A stretch of 64,000 nt of DNA from Scenedesmus sp. PABB004 (taxonomy: Eukaryota), in the NCBI GenBank assembly GCA_014905635.1, contig JABVCE010000009.1, positions 868,001-932,000 of the forward strand, written 5' to 3'. This document shows positions 17,698 through 33,744 of the stretch, piece after piece (the stretch's first letter is position 1; each line of letters begins with the position of its first letter). The notes beneath the pieces are model-generated. The model saw only the letters and a program-made list of their open reading frames with translations, did no database searches and was not told the DNA's origin. The translations under genes and the position numbers were made by a program.

Positions 17698-20600
17698 CGC
17701 CCGCGGCGGCGGCGGCGCGCGCGGCGGGCGGCCGAGCCGTCGCCGCGCCGCCGCGCCGCCGCGCCGCGCGCCGCGCAGGGAGCAAGGTCCCATCGGCGGG
17801 CTTTGTCGGCGACATGCGGCTGAGCTACGCCAAGTTTCTGCAGCTCCTGCACGGCAACCGGGTCAAGCGGCTCATCGTGTATGGCGACATGAAGACCGCG
17901 ATCGTGGAGGTGCGCGGCGCGCAGCGCATTGCGCGGCGCGCATTGCACTGCATTGCGCGCATTGCATTGTGCGCACACCGTGCGCACGCGCGGCCGGCCG
18001 CGCGTCACCGCCGCCGCCGCCCCGCGCCCGCGCGCCGCCCGCGGGGCGCAGGTGCCGCACCCCTGGACGACCAGCATGGCCGGCGCGCCGGGGCAGTACG
18101 GGCAGTACGCCGGCGCCGACGGGCGCCCGCTGGGCGTGCTCATCCCCAACCCTGCTGCGCCGCACGACCCCAGGCGCGCCGCGCCGCGCCGCGCCGCGCT
18201 TGACGCCCCGCCGCGGCGGCGCGCCGGACACCCTGCAGCGCCCGCCGCGCGCCGACGCGCGCCGCTCCGCCGCGCCGCCGCCGCCGCCGCGGCGCAGCCA
18301 GTGGTTCAGCCCGGAGCTGCCCGAGTGGGACATGGAGAAGTATCGCTTCTACGTTGACCTCCCGGGAGACTTTTGGGAGAGCGGCACGCTGCTGGCGTAC
18401 CTGCGCGGGCGCGAGGTCCAGGTGCGGGCCGCGGCGCGCGGCGGCGCGCGGCGGCGCGCTGCCCGGCGGAGGCCAGCAGAGGGCGGCGGGGGAGGAGGAG
18501 CAGGAGGAGGAAAGCAGCAGCGGCCGAGGGAGGGGCCATGGGGCCCGCTCCCGGGGGGGGGGGGGGCGACGCCTGCTGGCGGCGGCGGCGGGTGCGCGCC
18601 CACGGCGCGCCCACGCCTGCCCCTCCCCTCCCTCCCTGCGCCGCCGTCTGCCAGGTGGTGTGGGACGACGCGGCGCGGCAGTACGTGCTGCCCTACTCGG
18701 CGCTGACCAAGCTCGGCGAGGTGCGCACCGAGGTGCAGGTGCTCGACCCCGCTGACAACTGGGCCTTCCTCGGCTGGCTGCTGGACGAGCGGCGCATGCA
18801 GGTGCGCGTGTGCGCGCGCGGACAAGGGGCGAGCGCGCGGGCGGGCGGGCGCGGCCCCGGCCCCGGCCCGCGCGCGGCGGCGCCACCTGCAGGCCCGTCG
18901 TCACTGCCAACGGCGACGGGACCCGCAAGCGGCGCCGCCGCGCGCCGGGCGCCGCCGCGCGCCGGGCGCCGCCGCGCGGGCCTCCCCGCCGCGCGCGCGC
19001 GCCCTCGCCCGCGCCGCTGCCGCGCGGCGCCCCGCCGCCCGCGACCCAGCGCCCGCAGCCCAGCGCCCGCCCGCCCCCGCCCGCCCGCCCCCGCGCCCGC
19101 GCCGTGAACCCCAGTTCCTGGAGAAGGCCGCCGCGGTGTGCCTGGCCATCCGGGGCGTGGCGATCCTGACCAACATCATCTCCGCCACCTCGCTCGTGCG
19201 CTTCCTGCGCAAGCGGCGCCGCGCTAAGGACAAGAAGCAAAACATGTGGCAGCGCCTCACGCGCGCGCCGTGAGCGCGGCGCCGCGCCGCGGCGGCGCGC
19301 GGCGCGCGCACGCGCGGCGCCCTCAGCAGCCCCGCCGCGCTGCCGCCACGAGGGGCACCCGCCGCACGCGCCACGCGCGCGCTCACGCCCACGCACACGC
19401 TCCGCTCACGCCTCCCCGCGCAGGGCCAAGGAGTTTATGACGCGGGACAAGAGCGGCAAGCTCAAGGACACGGGCGTCCGCTTCGAAGACATCGCCGGTG
19501 CGCACCGCCTGGCGCCGCCAGCCCGCCAGCCCGCCCCGCCCGCCCGCCAGCCCGGCCGGCCCCTGCTCGCCGGCCCGGGAGCGGCGCGCCCGCCGCCGCC
19601 GCGCCGCACCCGCCGCGCGCCGCCGCTGCGCGCAGGCACGCCCGGCCTGGTGTTTGAGATGCGGGAGGTCGTGAAGATGCTGCTGCGCGACCCCGCCTAC
19701 GTCCGCGTCGGCGCGCGCTGCCCGCGGGTGCGCGCGCTGCGGGCGCGGCCGCGGGCGCAGCCGCCGGGCGGGGCCGAACGGCGGACGTCAAAACACAACG
19801 AGCGAGTCGCACGACTCCGCACAACCCTGACGATCGCCCCGCCGCCGCCTCGTGTGTGTGCGTGTGTGCGCGCGCACATGCAGGGCATCATCTTCCAGGG
19901 CCCCCCCGGCACGGGCAAGACCTACCTCGCGCGCGCGATCGCGGGCGAGGCGGGCGTCACGTTCCTGTCGGCGGTCGGGTCGGAGTTCGTCGAGATGTTT
20001 GCCGGTGCGCCACCGCCGCGCGCGCGCCGTGCCCCACCCCTCCATCCCACGCCGCCCGCGCCCGCCCTCCCGCCCTCCCTGCCGCCGCGCCCGCCTCCCT
20101 CCGTCTTGCACGCCCACCCGCGCGCCCACGCACCCGCCGGCGCCCCGCGCGCCGTACCGCCGCGCAGGCGTCGCGGCGGCGCGCGTGAACAGCCTGTTCC
20201 ACGCCGCGCGCCAGAAGGCACCGTGCATCATCTTCATCGACGAGGTCGACGCGATCGGGCGCTCGCGCAGCACCCTCGGCGGCGACCCCGGGTCGATGGA
20301 GCGCGAGAGCGCGCTGCTCAGCCTGCTGGTGCAAATGGACGGCATACACGGCCACCTCGAGCAGGCGCGGCGCCCGCTGCTGAGCGGGCGCCGGGCGCGG
20401 GCCCGCGCCGCGCGCGCGAGCACGGGACCCTGGCGCCAGCCAGCGCGAAGCGGCGCGCCGCGGCACCGCGTGCGGCGGCGCCCGCCGACGCCGCTGCGCC
20501 GCCGCGCCGCCGCGCCACTGCGCCCGCCAGGTGCTGACCATCGGCGCGACCAACCTCGCCCAGGAGCTCGACCAGGCGCTGCTGCGCCCGGGGCGCTTTG

Positions 20601-26691: not shown

Positions 26692-26757
<66 letters not shown>
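26692..26757. repeat. (GT)n microsatellite
   Basis: About 33 GT units. Confidence 0.97.
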
Positions 26758-26758
<1 letters not shown>

Positions 26759-27253
26759 GCGCGAATCTTTCAACCTGCGACGACCTGTAACTGCAGATCA
26801 GGCGAGATCGGATCGCAGGCGGGCGGTGTGTGGAGATCGCGAGCGGACCGGTCACACCGCCACGTTCCAGCGCGCAGTCTCCCTCGCGCGCACCACCGCG
26901 CGCGCCGCCGCACACTCCTGCGGCCCCGCGCAAACAATGAAAGAGCAGGGCGACACGCGCCCATTATGAAATCGCAGCGCGCTCGGCCGCCGCCAACCAA
27001 TAGGGGCGCGCCCTGCGCGCGCCCGTGTTTATTGTCTTTGCGCCCCGCGAGCGGTCCCGGCCCTCCTGAATCAAACGCCGCCAGCTACAGCATAATGGAA
27101 AATGAATCTGGCTGAATGGGAAATGAGAAACGCCGCGACTGCGCGGAAAACATTGGTGCCGCGGGAGTGGAGCGCGCGCCGGGACTGCCTCGGCGCTCGC
27201 ACGCTCATGCGCCGCGGCGGGCACGGCTCTCACGTGCATGCGTCGTGGCGGGG

Positions 27254-29353
27254 TCAGGGGCGGCTGGGGCGGCCCAGGATGTCCTTGAAGAAGCCGTTCC
27301 ACATCTGGGGCTGCGGCGCGGGGCCGGCGCCGGGCGCCACGTCGTAGCCAAAGCCGATGAAGGGCTTGCCGTTGGTCGGGGCCGGCGCGGCGTCCTTGAA
27401 GAAGCCAGACCACATGCCCGGGGCGAGCTGGGCCTGGGCGAGCTTGCGGCCGCCGATGTAAGGGTTCATGCCTGCGGGGCGCGGCGGCCGGGAGGAGGCG
27501 CGGGCAGGCGCGTGAGGCCTAGCCGGGCCCGCCCGCGGCCGGCGGCGCCGCCGAGTGGAGCTCAGCGCACGCGGCGCGCCGCGCGGCAGCCGCGCCGCAC
27601 CGGCGCCAAAGTTGTCGGGGCTGCCCATCTGCGCGGCGAGCATGGACGACTGCGCATTGCCGGCGCGGAAGCGGTTGGGATAGCCTGCGGCGGGCGGAGG
27701 TGGCAGTGCGCGCGGGTGAGCCAGGGTGAGAGGGCGGCCGGACGCTGGCAGGCTCATGTCGTGCTGCTGCCGCGACAGGCGCCGTGCGAGGGTCAGCGCA
27801 GCCAGCGCTGTGTGCAGACGCCTGGCGACGCGGTGTGCAGCTGGCTGCTCCCGTTGCAGCGCGGTCGCTCACCCTGGTACCAGTTGTTGGCCGCGGCGTT
27901 GAAGCTGGGCATGTCGGTGCCGACCCAGGACTGCTGGCTCAGCAGCTTGCGGCCGCCGATGTAAGGGTTCATGCCTGCGGGGCGCGGCGGCCGGGAGGAG
28001 GCGCGGGCAGGCGCGTGAGGCCTAGCCGGGCCCGCCCGCGGCCGGCGGCGCCGCCGAGTGGAGCTCAGCGCACACGGCGCGCCAGGCGGCAGCCGCGCCG
28101 CACCGGCGCCAAAGTTGTCGGGGCTGCCCATCTGCGCGGCGAGCATGGACGACTGCGCGTTGCCGGCGCGGAAGCGGTTGGGATAGCCTGCGAGCGGGGC
28201 GGCGGAGCGCGCGGGTGAGCCAGGATGGGAGGGCGGCCGGACGCTGGCCTTCCGGCGATCGTTGTCCCGGTGCCGGCCAGGGCCCAGGCTCAGCAGCCAG
28301 CGATGTGTACACGCCGCGGTGCGCATCCGCCTGACGGCGCAGCCGCCCGCCGCAGCGCTCACCCTGGTACCAGTTGTTGGCCGCGGCGTTGAAGCTGGGC
28401 ATGTCGGTGCCGACCCAGGACTGTTGGCTCAGCAGCTTGCGGCCGCCAATGTAAGGGTTCATGCCTGTGGGGCGCGACGGCCGGGAGGAGGCGTGGGCAG
28501 GCGCGTGAGGCCTAGCCGGGCCCGCCCGCGGCCGGCGGCGCCGCCGAGTGGAGCTCAGCGCACGCGGCGCGCCGCGCGGCAGCCGCGCCGCACCGGCGCC
28601 AAAGTTGTCGGGGCTGCCCATCTGCGCGGCGAGCATGGACGACTGCGCGTTGCCGGCGCGGAAGCGGTTGGGATAGCCTGCGAGCGGGGCGGCGGTGGCG
28701 GAGCGCGAGGGTGAGCCGGGCCGCCGGAGGGCCCTGGCACTTTGTCTCGCCGCCGGCCAGGGCCCAGCGCAGCGAGCAGCCAGCGCTGTGTGCAGCAGAA
28801 CCTGGCGACGCGGTGTGCAGCTGGCTGTGCCCGGTGCAGCGCGGTCGCTCACCCTGGTACCAGTTGTTGGCCGCGGCGTTGAAGCTGGGCATGTCGGTGC
28901 CGACCCAGGACTGCTGGCCCAGCAGCTTGCGGCCCAGCGCGCCCAGCAGCCGCCGCGCGGCACCGGCCTGCTGCTGCGTGGCAAGCGTGACCGAGTTGAG
29001 CAGCGGCACAGCCTGCGCGACAGGGGGACGGCGGCGCGGTGAGGCGGCGGGCGCACCCCCCGGCGCGCCCAACGGCAGACCCGGCGCCTGCACGCGCCTT
29101 GGCAGCAGCGGCGTCAGCCGGAGAGTCGCTCGGCAGGCCCAGGTCCTCGGCCAGGCGGCCCAGCAGGAGCGGAGCGGTGGCCTGGAGGGCGGCAGCACGG
29201 GGAGCGTCAGCGGCCGTATCGCGGCGGCGGTGAGCCTGCGGCGGCCGCACGCGCTCAGCAGCTCTGCGATAGCATTTGTGAGCTCTTTTCGCGCACCTGA
29301 GCGGCCAGCGGCGCAGCCACGAGCAGGAGCGCGAGGGCCCACGCGCGCGCCAT
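27254..29353 (-). CDS. Secreted tandem-repeat peptide precursor, about 324 aa (exons 29353-29297, 29181-29098, 29012-28853, 28677-28594, 28464-28363, 28187-28104, 27974-27873, 27684-27601, 27471-27254)
   Basis: Signal peptide MARAWALALLLVAAPLAAQ. All junctions are in phase (one GC donor). Three 58-aa peptides are delimited by G-RKL(L). Confidence 0.88.
27445..28935. repeat. Three tandem ~490-503-bp units (2 exons + 2 introns each) inside the peptide-precursor gene
   Basis: The marker accctggtac occurs at 27871, 28361 and 28851. Confidence 0.95.
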
Positions 29354-30072
29354 CTCTTCAAAAGCGCGCGAGAGGTCAAAGGCGCGGGTGGGCTGCGGGC
29401 CTGACGCGCGGTGGTGCGGTCGATGAGCCTGGGAGTTGTGGAGAGGCCTCGGCGCAGCGGGGAAGAAGAGCGACCGCGGGGCGCGCGGCCTGCCCCGCGC
29501 TTACCGCGGCCGCGTCCCACGGCAGCCCCCGGTCCTGTGACCAACACGAAGCTGCCCAACGCGCAGCCACAGAGCTCGACACAGACACGAAGCGGGCGCG
29601 CCGGCGGGCGGGGTGCCGGGAGCGGCGCGATCGCGGGCGTTGGTTGCCGGCGCTGCTGCTGTCCAGCCCCTGCTGCTACCCCCGCGACAAAAAAGACCGA
29701 CAGGCCTGCACCTCACTCCCCACGCACGTAGCTCACGCGCCCGCACGCTCCACGTGCGGCGGCGCCGTGCGCGGCCGCGCCGCGCGGCCGCGCGATCAAC
29801 ACGCCCCCCCAGGTGCGCACGTACGGATGTGCAGAGGCGCAGCTCTCCTCTGCAGGAGGCAGCACTCAGTGGCGCCTCGAGCAGGCGCTCAAGCAGTGCT
29901 CGGGGCCGCCCCGTGTGGAAAACAAATCTGATTCAGATACGCGCGACACATCCCTTGCCTCACGCTCAGTGTCGCGCAGCTGGGCATGGGCCCACCCTCG
30001 GCAGTGCTGCTTGCTCAGACCATTACGAACCTTGACCGTGTGCTGGCGGCCTGTCGCGCCTGCCGCGGCCTG

Positions 30073-31131
30073 TCACGCGGCCGACTGCGCCGGCGTCAAC
30101 GCGCCGTCCAGCCCCTCCTGCGCGGGCGTCGCCGCCATCAGCACCGCCTGCAGCACTGCGGGCGGCGGCGGCGCCAGCAGCGGCGGGGGCGGCAAGTCAG
30201 GGGCGGTCGGGGCGCCAGCAGCGGAGGGGGCGGCGGCGCCGCGTCGTGCGCCCCGCGCCGCGCGCGCGCTGTCGCGCCCCGCCGCGGGGCCCCGCGCCCC
30301 GCAGGACTCCTCACGCGGCGCGGAGCGCGGGATGTAGGGGAAACAGGAGACGATGAGCGCCTGGCGCTGCTGGGGCGTCAGCACGTTGAGCGTGAAGCTG
30401 GTGAGCATGGTGGAGCTCACGCGCATGCCCGAGAGCAGCCCGCGCAGCTTCGACACCGCCGCCTCGTCGCGGGTGCCGCCCGCGCCGCCCCCGGCCGCGG
30501 GCGCGGCCGGCGCGGCGCCGCTGCCCTCGGCCGTCTCCGCCGCGGGCGCGGGCGCGTCGCCGGCGGCGGCGCAGCCGAGCGCCAGCTCCTTGGCGCGCGT
30601 CGCGGCGGCCAGCTCGCTCGCCGCCGCGCGGTGCTCGCCGCGCCGCCCCGCCGCGTGTCGGCTGAACTGCTGGAAGGCCACCAGCAGCTGCTGTGCCTGC
30701 CCGGGCGAGAGCGCGAGCGCGGCCGCGACGCGCCGCCAGTGCGCGGCCGGCACAGGGCTCGGCGCGGGCTGCCCCGTGGCCACGTCGGTGAGCGTCGCGG
30801 CGCGCAGCGGCAGGTCGGCGGCCAGCACCTGGGCGAGCAAGGTCAGGCCGAAGAAGTCGTCCACCGCCGCGTCCGCGGCGGACGCGGCCGCCGCGTCCGC
30901 CGGCAGGCGGGCGAGCAGGGCGAGCCTCGACGCGAGCGCCGCGTACGCGGCGCACCAGTCGCCTGGGCCCATGCGCAGCAGGCGCTGGACCTGCTCCGCC
31001 GTTGCGTGCGCAAGCAGGCCCGCGACGTAGCCGCCGCCGCCGTCGAAGCTGAGCGGCTCGGCGCCGCCACTCGCGCACAGCAGCGCGCCGGGATGCGGCA
31101 GGCGCAGTGCCTGCTGCGCCTCCTGCTGCTG

Positions 31132-31916: not shown

Positions 31917-33744
31917 ATGTTGGCCGCGGCGCAGCAGGCCTGCTGCCCGCGCCGCCGGGCTGTCCCGGCAGCCGCGCGGCATCCCAGGTGCGGCAGGCGG
32001 TTGCTGGAGGGGCCCAGGGCTTGCATGCATGGTCGCCGACGGCGGCGCGCGCGCTGCACCAGCGGCAGCGGCTCACGGCCGCCGCCGCCGCGCGCCGCCC
32101 GCCGGCGCAGCTGCTCCTACGCCCCCCGGCAGCCGCGCTCCTCGCGCCTGCTGGCGGCGGCGCGCCGGCGGCGCGGCGCGGTCGCGGTGCGGGCAGCGGC
32201 GCCGACGCTGTACGAGGCGCTCGGCGTCGCGGCGGACGCGAGCGAGCGCGACATCAAGAAGGCGTACCGCCAGAAGGCGCTGAAGCTCCACCCCGACGTC
32301 AACAAGGCGGTGCGCCCCGCGCGCGCAGCGCGCGCGCGCGCGCGCGCCCGCAGCTCGAGGCGCGGCGGCGCGGCACGCGCCTGCGGGCCGGGCCCGTCAC
32401 ACGCTCAGCGCCGCGCCGCCGCCGCCGCTGCAGCCCAACGCGGAGGCGCAGTTCCTGGAGGTCAAGAACGCCTTCACGGTGCTCAGCGACCCGCAGCAGC
32501 GCGCCGCGTACGACCGCAAGCTCAAGGGGGTGAGACGAGATCGCGGCGCCAGGCGGGCGGCGGCGCTGCCCCGCCCTCGTGCAGCATTGCGGCGGCGACG
32601 CGCCCGCCACCGCACGCCCGGCGCCCCACTGCGCCCCACCGCGCGCCGCCCCACCGTGCGTGCGCAGGGCTTTGACTTTGGTGGATACGGCGGCTGGGGC
32701 GGCGCCGCGAGCAGCAGCAGCAGCAGCGGCGGCGGCGGCGGCGGCGCGCGGCCGCGGCCGAAGCAGCCCGAGGAAGAGTTTTACGGCCTGGTGAGTGCGG
32801 CAGGGCGCCCCCGGGGTGGCGGCGGGGCGGCGCGGCGGGCGCGTGGTGCAGGGGCGGGGGCGCGCGGCGGCGCGCCCTTTAGAGAGTAGGGGGAGCAGGA
32901 GCGAGGCGAGGTGGGCGCGGGCCGGGGGCGCGCTGATCGGTCCCTCTCTCCCGTGCGCGCGTGTGCAGGCCGACCTGCTGTCAGACCTGGGCGGCAGCGT
33001 GGGCGCGTGGGTGCGGCAGCAGCAGGGCGAGCTCGGCAGGCTGCAGCAGGGGCTGGGCAGCGTGGCGGCGCAGGCCGGCGACGCGCTCAAAGCTGGCAAG
33101 CTCGTGAGTGTGTGCGTTCGCCGTGCACGGGGCCCGCCGACGCAGCGGAGGCCGCCGCCGCGCCGGATGCGGCGGGGCGGCCCGCCGCTCCGCCACCCCT
33201 TCGCCCCGCCGGTGCCGCCCCCGCCTCCACCGCCCTCCCGCCGCACCCTGCGCCGCGCCCGCGCCCTGACCCCGCCCGTGCCCGCTCGCCGCCGCAGGAA
33301 GACTTTTTCAACGACCTTGAAAAGGAGGTTGGCGCGTGGAGCAAGGCCCGCGCGGCGGACGGCAAGCCCGCGAGCCTCTGGGAGGAGCTCGCCGCGATCG
33401 GGGAGGAGTTTGTGGACTTCCTGGAGCAGGGCCTCGGCGAGCCCCAGGGCGGCGCCGGCGACGCGGGCGGCGGCGGCGCGGGCAAGGCCGGCAGCGCGGC
33501 GCGTGGCGCGAGCAGCTTCAACGCCGGCGGCCGGCGCTCGCCGGTGGACGCGTACGAGGAGCTGAAGCGCGCGTACGACCTCGGCGGCGCCGCGGCGGGT
33601 GGCGCGCGCGGCGCCGCGGCGGGCGGCGCGGGCAGCGCGCCGCCGCCTCCGCGGCCGCCGCCGCCGCCGCCGCCCAAGAAGAGTGCGGAGGACGAGATCG
33701 AGGACGAGCTCGCGGCGCTCAAGCGCAAGATGAACCGGGCCTGA
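31917..33744 (+). CDS. Chloroplast J-domain protein, CDJ2/DJC73-like
   Basis: Transit peptide. TLYEALGV..IKKAYRQKALKLHPDVNK (HPD motif), EEEFYGL, SLWEELAAIGEEFVDFLE, IEDELAALKRKM. Confidence 0.85.

Follow-up and report, generated by a model that had tools for sequence, protein, structure and literature searches.

The window analysed here is a 64,000-nucleotide stretch of contig JABVCE010000009.1 of Scenedesmus sp. PABB004 (assembly GCA_014905635.1, positions 868,001 to 932,000 of the forward strand), and the subject is a minus-strand gene within it whose product has the design of a multi-copy peptide precursor. The gene runs from an ATG at 29353 to a TGA stop ending at 27254 (all positions are those of the window). 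Eight predicted exons with canonical GT..AG junctions encode a 296-aa product that begins with the putative signal peptide MARAWALALLLVAAPLAAQ and continues with AVPLLNSVTLATQQQAGAA-RRLL-GALG-RKLL. This pro-region is followed by three copies of a 58-aa unit, (G/S)QQSWVGTDMPSFNAAANNWYQGYPNRFRAGNAQSSMLAAQMGSPDNFGAGMNPYIGG, and by a 60-aa tail. The spacers are RKLL behind units 1 and 2 and RKLA behind unit 3. A sequence-word search with the last exon found one protein, ‘hypothetical protein HT031_003414 [Scenedesmus sp. PABB004]’ (P0001, 719 aa), and residues 424-719 of this deposited model are identical to the eight-exon product. The locus is best explained, on the sequence evidence, as a stand-alone gene for a secreted prepro-polyprotein that belongs to a small family centred on the Scenedesmaceae. 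Its features are as follows.

29297..29353, minus strand: exon 1, with the start codon and the putative signal peptide; the same exon is used in the deposited model
29013..29296, minus strand: intron 1 (GTGCGC..GCGCAG), which holds a putative extra pro-region exon proposed earlier (about 29074-29181)
28853..29012, minus strand: exon 2, with the pro-region, RRLL (28944-28955), RKLL (28920-28931) and the first third of unit 1 (GQQSW..WYQG)
28594..28677, minus strand: exon 3, the middle of unit 1 (YPNRF..NFGAG)
28363..28464, minus strand: exon 4, with the end of unit 1 (MNPYIGG), RKLL (28430-28441) and the first third of unit 2
28104..28187, minus strand: exon 5, the middle of unit 2
27873..27974, minus strand: exon 6, with the end of unit 2, RKLL (27940-27951) and the first third of unit 3
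27601..27684, minus strand: exon 7, the middle of unit 3
27254..27471, minus strand: exon 8, with the end of unit 3, RKLA (27437-27448), the 60-aa tail and the TGA (27254-27256)
27472-27600, 27975-28103 and 28465-28593, minus strand: the three copies of a 129-nt intron, in frame and stop-free
27441..28934, no strand assigned: a tandem repeat of 490 bp in 3.0 copies, made of the unit exons and their two introns
30073..30075, minus strand: TGA stop of an upstream poly-Q gene, removed as intron in the deposited 719-aa model

An earlier sequence-only reading of this DNA had proposed the same protein, and the product described here is letter-for-letter identical to it. That reading had placed the protein on nine exons, of which only eight are supported. 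The ninth, at about 29181-29074, is rejected because it has no good in-frame GT donor, because its GC content is flat across codon positions and not coding-like (GC1 86%, GC2 69%, GC3 78% for the first, second and third positions), and because it is absent from P0001. Codon-position periodicity is strong in the eight-exon coding sequence (GC1 62%, GC2 54%, GC3 93%), which lies in surroundings of 72-83% GC per 2-kb window.

The leader shows the n-, h- and c-regions of a signal peptide when assessed by eye, and joined to exon 2 it reads AQA|V, with a small residue pair at -3 and -1. The whole protein contains no Cys and no N-glycosylation sequons. The 58-aa unit is likewise Cys-free and has a mass of about 6.2 kDa; it is rich in N/Q/G/A and aromatic residues, with G, A and N prominent, no Lys and 6 Ser among its 58 residues. 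Each unit is spread across three exons, with the R-K-L motif in an exon interior, and the genomic repeat (Tandem Repeats Finder score 2191) is not in register with the peptide unit. The 60-aa tail carries an octapeptide, MW(S/N)GFFKD, twice at a distance of 37 residues (MWSGFFKD at 27392-27415 and MWNGFFKD at 27281-27304). The tail had no relatives when 1.84 billion representative proteins were searched exhaustively with HMMER, and its reading as a degenerate fourth unit is not supported (BLASTP of tail against unit, E 4.1).

Repeats within a gene can be kept alike by concerted evolution as well as by selection, and both have to be considered here. Any two exon copies are identical at all but 2-3 of 186 nt, and the changes seen, four in all, comprise three synonymous substitutions and one Gly/Ser replacement. 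The intron that follows ...WYQG is strongly diverged among copies: mismatches number 33/147, 41/171 and 41/157, and the alignments have 21-56 gap columns (about 75% identity). The 129-nt intron before MNPYIGG shows 3-6 differences in 129 nt and no gaps (95-98% identity). Gene conversion of the exon-intron-exon block is the simplest reading of this intron's conservation, and the identity of the exons may owe as much to gene conversion as to purifying selection. Because the 129-nt intron is as conserved as the exons, evidence of constraint must come from other species. Two further explanations of the intron were tried. A structured RNA is not supported, with z = -1.41 and 15/200 shuffles folding equally well. 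Retained coding sequence was rejected: the readable inter-copy differences would all change amino acids, and the intron is absent from the spanning fragments of 13/13 relatives.

The sequence-only reading had called for a homologue search with the 58-aa unit, and such searches returned relatives in other algae. HMMER, in the same 1.84 billion proteins and at a threshold of E <= 0.001, gave 10 proteins including the query. A profile search with the unit gave 15 proteins among 8000 scored candidates. The family spans coenobium-forming Scenedesmaceae and a few other algae. The most informative member is an ‘uncharacterized protein’ of Tetradesmus obliquus (A0A383V7V9, P0011, 375 aa), a stand-alone orthologue that opens with its own hydrophobic, signal-like leader, MPVVVLLALASFSQA. 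Its pro-region of about 85 aa does not align to that of Scenedesmus sp. PABB004 and is followed by ARKLL. Four units of 67 aa (7.0 kDa) come next, each ending NPYIGG-RKLM and followed by the Q/S-rich SQQAVQGQQSSGT ahead of WVGTD, and the C-terminus reads GGRRMQ. The two proteins therefore differ in copy number (three units in PABB004, four in T. obliquus). Within the units 146/186 aligned residues are identical (78%), compared with 12/46 aligned residues, and 50 gap columns, in signal plus pro-region. Conservation of the peptide units while the pro-region diverges is the pattern of a multi-copy peptide precursor.

Thirteen short JGI proteins from related algae have the look of open reading frames (ORFs) called on genomic contigs. 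All thirteen read NFGAGYNPY(I/M)G without interruption and thus lack the 129-nt intron. All twelve fragments that reach YQG (11 JGI proteins and P0010) diverge directly after it, with E or K, which is the product expected from read-through of a phase-1 GT(G/A)AG intron, as in YQGER here. Three of the fragments share one contig of 86,950 bp and three another of 80,449 bp, so multi-unit genes are present in at least two further assemblies. In P0008 and P0018 the last unit ends GGRKLQTQE-stop. The architecture claimed by the sequence-only reading, a signal peptide with peptide copies between R-[RK]-L-x sites, recurs in T. obliquus and in these fragments from other assemblies.

Two more distant relatives combine the unit with an adhesion domain. 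P0006 (EukProt, 401 aa) has a fasciclin domain (63.9 bits), a linker and then ...AKQGRRLM-QAN-WVGTNMPSYNAAAQSYYQGYPNMF..., and P0009 has a fasciclin domain (24.3 bits), a linker and then GRRLA-GHQS-WVGTDEPS... and GRRRL-SQD-WVGTDEPSFN.... In both proteins the unit lies at the C-terminal end, past an Ala/Pro/Ser/Gly linker and an RRL-type motif. The first unit of P0009 consists of the WVGTD..FYQ third alone; judged from this sequence, that third may be the ancestral module. When the P0006 unit was used as query, the homologue search returned no protein other than P0006. Scanning of metagenome contigs with the unit profile reduced 257 pattern matches to one locus (L001), where DPNNFGAGY (642-752) is a chance match in an ORF of >1766 aa unrelated to the unit, and it was rejected as a relative.

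The basic motif was counted in the 18 proteins collected, which contain 22 WVGT units. It lies 3-16 residues before the unit in 22/22 cases, as R-[RK]-L-[LMA] in 21 and as RRRL in one, and Gly stands ahead of the basic pair in 20 of them. Homologues lacking the spacers would, by the sequence-only reading, have counted against its proposal, and the homologues keep them. Every site examined, including RRLL, RKLA and the terminal RRMQ and RKLQ, reads as a basic pair followed by L or M. The motif and the core are fixed, and the Q/S-rich stretch from motif to W varies (3, 4, 5, 13 or 16 residues). The motif also closes a last unit behind which nothing follows, in P0011 (GGRRMQ-stop) and in P0008 and P0018 (GGRKLQTQE-stop), and it is kept in the fasciclin proteins P0006 and P0009 although the surrounding sequence is unrelated. 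Because the spacing varies and the flanks in the fasciclin proteins are unrelated, the motif, judged by these comparisons, is under a constraint of its own, seen in few independent lineages (PABB004, the T. obliquus group, P0006 and P0009). Gene structure, repeats and motifs are direct observations, as is the finding that they are conserved in other genera and among distant relatives.

In plants, pectin methylesterases are processed at RRLL/RKLL. RALF23 is cut by SBT6.1 at RRIL|A and PROSCOOP12 by SBT3.5 at TGRRLM|G, and S1P-type subtilases are described in the same source as cleaving behind the fourth motif residue (PMC13082318). The RRLL, RKLL and RKLA sites of the PABB004 protein all conform to the RxLx/RxxL form of product boundary as defined there (PMC13082318), as do RRMQ and other sites in the relatives. 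Diatom silaffin precursor Sil1p is reported to be cut into repeat peptides with loss of the C-terminal RRIL/RRNL (PMC4557024). In one published account, the bioinformatic criteria for a peptide precursor are a signal peptide, the absence of any known domain, and multiple peptide copies flanked by basic sites (PMC6313938). The PABB004 protein has three copies of one peptide between basic motifs, and no recognised domain.

Our preferred reading is that the protein is a polyprotein which is secreted and then cleaved at G-R-[RK]-[LM]-x by a subtilisin-like protease, yielding three or four Cys-free peptides of about 6-7 kDa; on the sequence evidence we rate this as evenly balanced. The leader, the divergent pro-region, the repeated domain-less peptide, the constant motif flanking every copy and the variable copy number fit the published precursor criteria. 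The motif is of the RxLx type, and Sil1p offers a precedent for the architecture; cutting is favoured on these grounds. The signal peptide would bring the protein to the endoplasmic reticulum, where signal peptidase would cut after AQA20, and an endoprotease of the secretory pathway would recognise each G-R-[R/K]-[L/M]-x. The leading candidate is an RxLx enzyme resembling S1P/SBT6.1 or SBT3.5, a dibasic enzyme of the kexin/furin kind being less likely; the RxLx reading is favoured because L or M after the basic pair is obligatory. Cutting would free a short helical propeptide, three identical 58-aa peptides and the 60-aa tail. The peptides would act outside the cell, as a diffusible signal or as a wall or matrix component.

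Several points weigh against processing into free peptides. Secretion, cleavage, the enzyme and the function are inferred. Peptides of 58-67 residues without Cys are long for classical signalling peptides. A conserved R-[RK]-L beside a conserved module could be part of that module. Most relatives are close (Scenedesmaceae), and the argument from the motif depends on two or three distant sequences. The near-identity of exons within the gene is no clean sign of selection, since concerted evolution can explain both the exons and the intron. AlphaFold2 returned a mean predicted local distance difference test score (pLDDT) of 47.1 and a predicted template modelling score of 0.23, with 199/296 residues below 50; its alignment held 12 sequences, so that low confidence is no proof of disorder. 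The units were modelled as coil with one short helix each, and only the pro-region helix (21-51) reached a pLDDT of about 75-79. A low-confidence Atlas model (pLDDT 0.44) resembles beta-helix proteins, with template modelling (TM) scores of 0.39-0.49.

The beta-helix-like model suits a different explanation, in which the protein stays uncleaved outside the cell as a tandem-repeat component of wall, coenobial cement or matrix, its modules of about 60 aa bind or self-assemble, and GGRKL(L/M)SQQ is a conserved linker. We consider this possible, though somewhat unlikely. It is also suited by P0006 and P0009, in which the unit comes after a fasciclin adhesion domain, by the aromatic and N/Q/G composition without Cys, and by the narrow range of the family, which is restricted to Scenedesmaceae that form coenobia and to few algae besides. 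Positional conservation is high throughout the 56-aa core, which suits a specific interaction surface. Against this, no element is as constant as the basic-hydrophobic motif, which persists amid unrelated flanks, whereas linkers are normally the least conserved part, and the protein is without the Hyp/Pro-rich or N-glycosylation motifs of algal wall glycoproteins. AlphaFold2 proposes no fold for the units. Pfam and PDB sequence searches gave no known structural repeat family either. Pfam has no family on the unit in P0001, P0011 or the relatives, and fasciclin (PF02469) had no match in P0001 or P0011. In PDB the best single-sequence match had E 0.66 and the best profile match, an antibody chain, E 0.018, neither of them significant. 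Protein Atlas features gave no usable look-alikes for P0001 residues 423-719 or for P0011. A match to a known structural repeat family, which the sequence-only reading had named as evidence against itself, did not appear in the Pfam or PDB searches.

Amidation of the units was also part of the sequence-only reading, which had paired an S1P-type cut with the amidating enzyme PAM. The pairing is inconsistent: a cut after RKLL leaves ...IGGRKLL with no C-terminal Gly, which is therefore not a PAM substrate. By analogy with Chlamydomonas proGATI, amidation would need a cut after RK and then trimming of the basic residues; in proGATI, three Arg are reported to be trimmed by a CPE-like enzyme before amidation (PMC9351486). 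The statement that Chlamydomonas has PAM holds, and PAM is reported for Gonium and Volvox as well (PMC6529398), but the host here is Scenedesmus, a member of the Sphaeropleales. PHM is reported for Coccomyxa and Chlorella, and Scenedesmus is not among the algae named there for either enzyme (PMC6529398).

A consistent version of the amidation proposal would have a dibasic convertase cut after RK, a carboxypeptidase remove K and R, and PAM make ...PYIG-NH2, so that the gene would encode a multi-copy amidated signal or pheromone. The sites have the Gly-then-basic form of a PAM substrate, with GG-RK after every unit of the PABB004 protein and GG-RR-MQ at the end of the last unit of P0011. Across the family the inter-unit sites are all G-G-R-K, or G-A-G-R-K in P0004 and P0008. 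A G-basic-basic pathway is described as working in a green alga for proGATI (PMC9351486), and PAM/PHM genes are reported in several chlorophytes (PMC6529398). However, L or M stands behind the basic pair in every site examined, which a plain dibasic site does not need and which fits RxLx cleavage leaving ...GGRKLL. P0006 and P0009 keep the Gly where no peptide precedes it, so it may belong to the recognition motif. The PAM, CPE-like and kexin-like enzymes would have to be assumed for the Scenedesmus lineage, and the peptide is long, with neither a receptor nor a bioassay known for it. We consider this route improbable. A signalling function for the units is pure inference, and we see little prospect that they are a Scenedesmaceae-specific peptidergic signal, such as a cue for mating, density or coenobium formation, released in 3-4 copies by a convertase and possibly amidated. 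If they were, the gene would be the first in a green alga to encode a multi-copy precursor of neuropeptide style with a biological role, and Chlorophyceae would be shown to use polyproteins for peptide signals.

The deposited annotation raises the question of whether the gene stands alone. If the 719-aa model were correct, the repeats would form the C-terminal region of a larger poly-Q protein that is not secreted, with MARAW... lying inside it. In its favour, the fused model is the sole deposited annotation and its linking introns have usable GT..AG sites. The fusion, however, excises the upstream poly-Q gene's own TGA through a GTGACA donor, crosses an AT-richer, untranslated region (UTR)-like stretch and adds a small exon at about 29514-29560. 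The T. obliquus orthologue, by contrast, stands alone with a predicted signal peptide, the N-terminal part occurs in 0/9 of the other HMMER matches, and Pfam gave only poly-Q noise on residues 1-423. Because the TGA must be spliced out and the orthologue stands alone, the fusion is probably a gene-merge prediction artefact, and we regard a correct 719-aa model as very unlikely. Least credible of all is a non-functional, recently amplified repeat that is open by chance: the copies are nearly identical, one intron included, yet other genera hold orthologues with these units and a conserved intron position, the coding sequence shows GC3 periodicity, and 3/4 of the substitutions between exon copies are synonymous.

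Other features of the neighbourhood were recorded. Beyond the precursor stop, an AT-richer stretch at 26940-27160 resembles a 3' UTR, with AATAAA at 27028-27033 on the minus strand, about 220 nt past the TGA. A perfect (GT)33 microsatellite lies at 26692-26757, about 500 bp downstream of the stop. Among neighbouring ORFs, a DnaJ domain was found at 32208-32309 on the plus strand (E 3.4e-11) and AAA ATPase pieces at 19887-20352 on the plus strand (E about 1e-10); nothing about these two points to a functional tie with the precursor gene. A cluster of the ribosomally synthesised and post-translationally modified peptide (RiPP) type was considered and rejected, as the 36 ORFs scanned at 19-37 kb yielded nothing beyond AAA, DnaJ and poly-Q noise.

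The PABB004 gene is part of a real, conserved gene family with a precursor-like design, uncharacterised so far. The WVGTDxPSFN...YQGYPNxF unit family has no Pfam model, and its members carry only the source names ‘hypothetical’ or ‘uncharacterized’. A literature search found no mention of A0A383V7V9 or of five unit peptide strings, supplements of other papers lying outside its scope. The precursor is also absent from the text and one supplementary file of an S. obliquus wall proteome study that used the PABB004 proteome (PMC11839794). Should cleavage occur as predicted, a single polyprotein in green algae would supply one extracellular peptide in several copies, by way of RxLx-type sites. Peptide signals of animals and fungi, plant subtilase substrates (with a single copy) and diatom silaffins are known examples of this strategy; we found no described chlorophyte case. 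Cutting as predicted would also make the protein an easily assayed substrate for algal secretory subtilases, with three identical products of about 6.2 kDa. If the units are instead wall or cement modules, they would be an undescribed wall component of the Scenedesmaceae, a family of industrial interest in which colony formation and wall properties influence grazing resistance and harvesting.

Among known systems, yeast alpha-factor and the fungal KEPs are kexin-processed multi-copy precursors. Like these and like animal neuropeptide polyproteins, the PABB004 protein has a signal peptide (putative here), no recognised domain and peptide copies between basic sites. Kexin-type products are usually shorter than about 40 aa and lie between KR/RR with no obligatory hydrophobic residue, whereas the units here are 58-67 aa and the sites read R-[RK]-[LM]-x.

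Chlamydomonas preproGATI (Cre03.g204500) is a green-algal secreted precursor with subtilisin-like processing and a Gly-basic signal, as described in two accounts (PMC9351486; PMC6919629). In contrast to the PABB004 protein, the 91-kDa glycoprotein proGATI has folded domains and yields one amidated product, from its C-terminus, without tandem copies, and it was not among the HMMER matches to the precursor (E <= 0.001). The fasciclin (PF02469) proteins P0006 and P0009 are true distant homologues of the unit with an RRL motif in front. Each has one or two units behind its adhesion domain and is not a pure multi-copy precursor, and the PABB004 protein has no fasciclin domain.

Diatom silaffin Sil1p, as described in one source, has a signal peptide and tandem units each ending in RRxL, from which multiple matrix peptides are released (PMC4557024); the PABB004 protein, with its putative signal peptide and predicted cleavage, has a similar layout. 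There is no sequence relationship between the two. Silaffin units are short, Lys/Ser-rich and heavily modified, whereas the Scenedesmus and Tetradesmus units are neutral, rich in N/Q/G and aromatic residues and 58-67 aa long. The alga is not silicified, and the likeness to a silaffin of a silica-forming organism is architectural only.

The substrates of plant S1P/SBT6.1 and SBT3.5 (RALF23, PROSCOOP12 and CLEL6) resemble the PABB004 protein in having a signal peptide (putative in the alga) and R-[RK]-[LIM]-x directly upstream of a conserved product, and GRRLM of P0006 is the PROSCOOP12 site over five residues. Plant substrates hold one product each, without tandem copies, and these products are unrelated in sequence to the algal units. 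For the alga, the enzyme is a candidate and the cleavage is predicted. The unit family and its occurrence in chlorophytes appear undescribed; the multi-copy secreted precursor with subtilase-type sites is a known kind of system.

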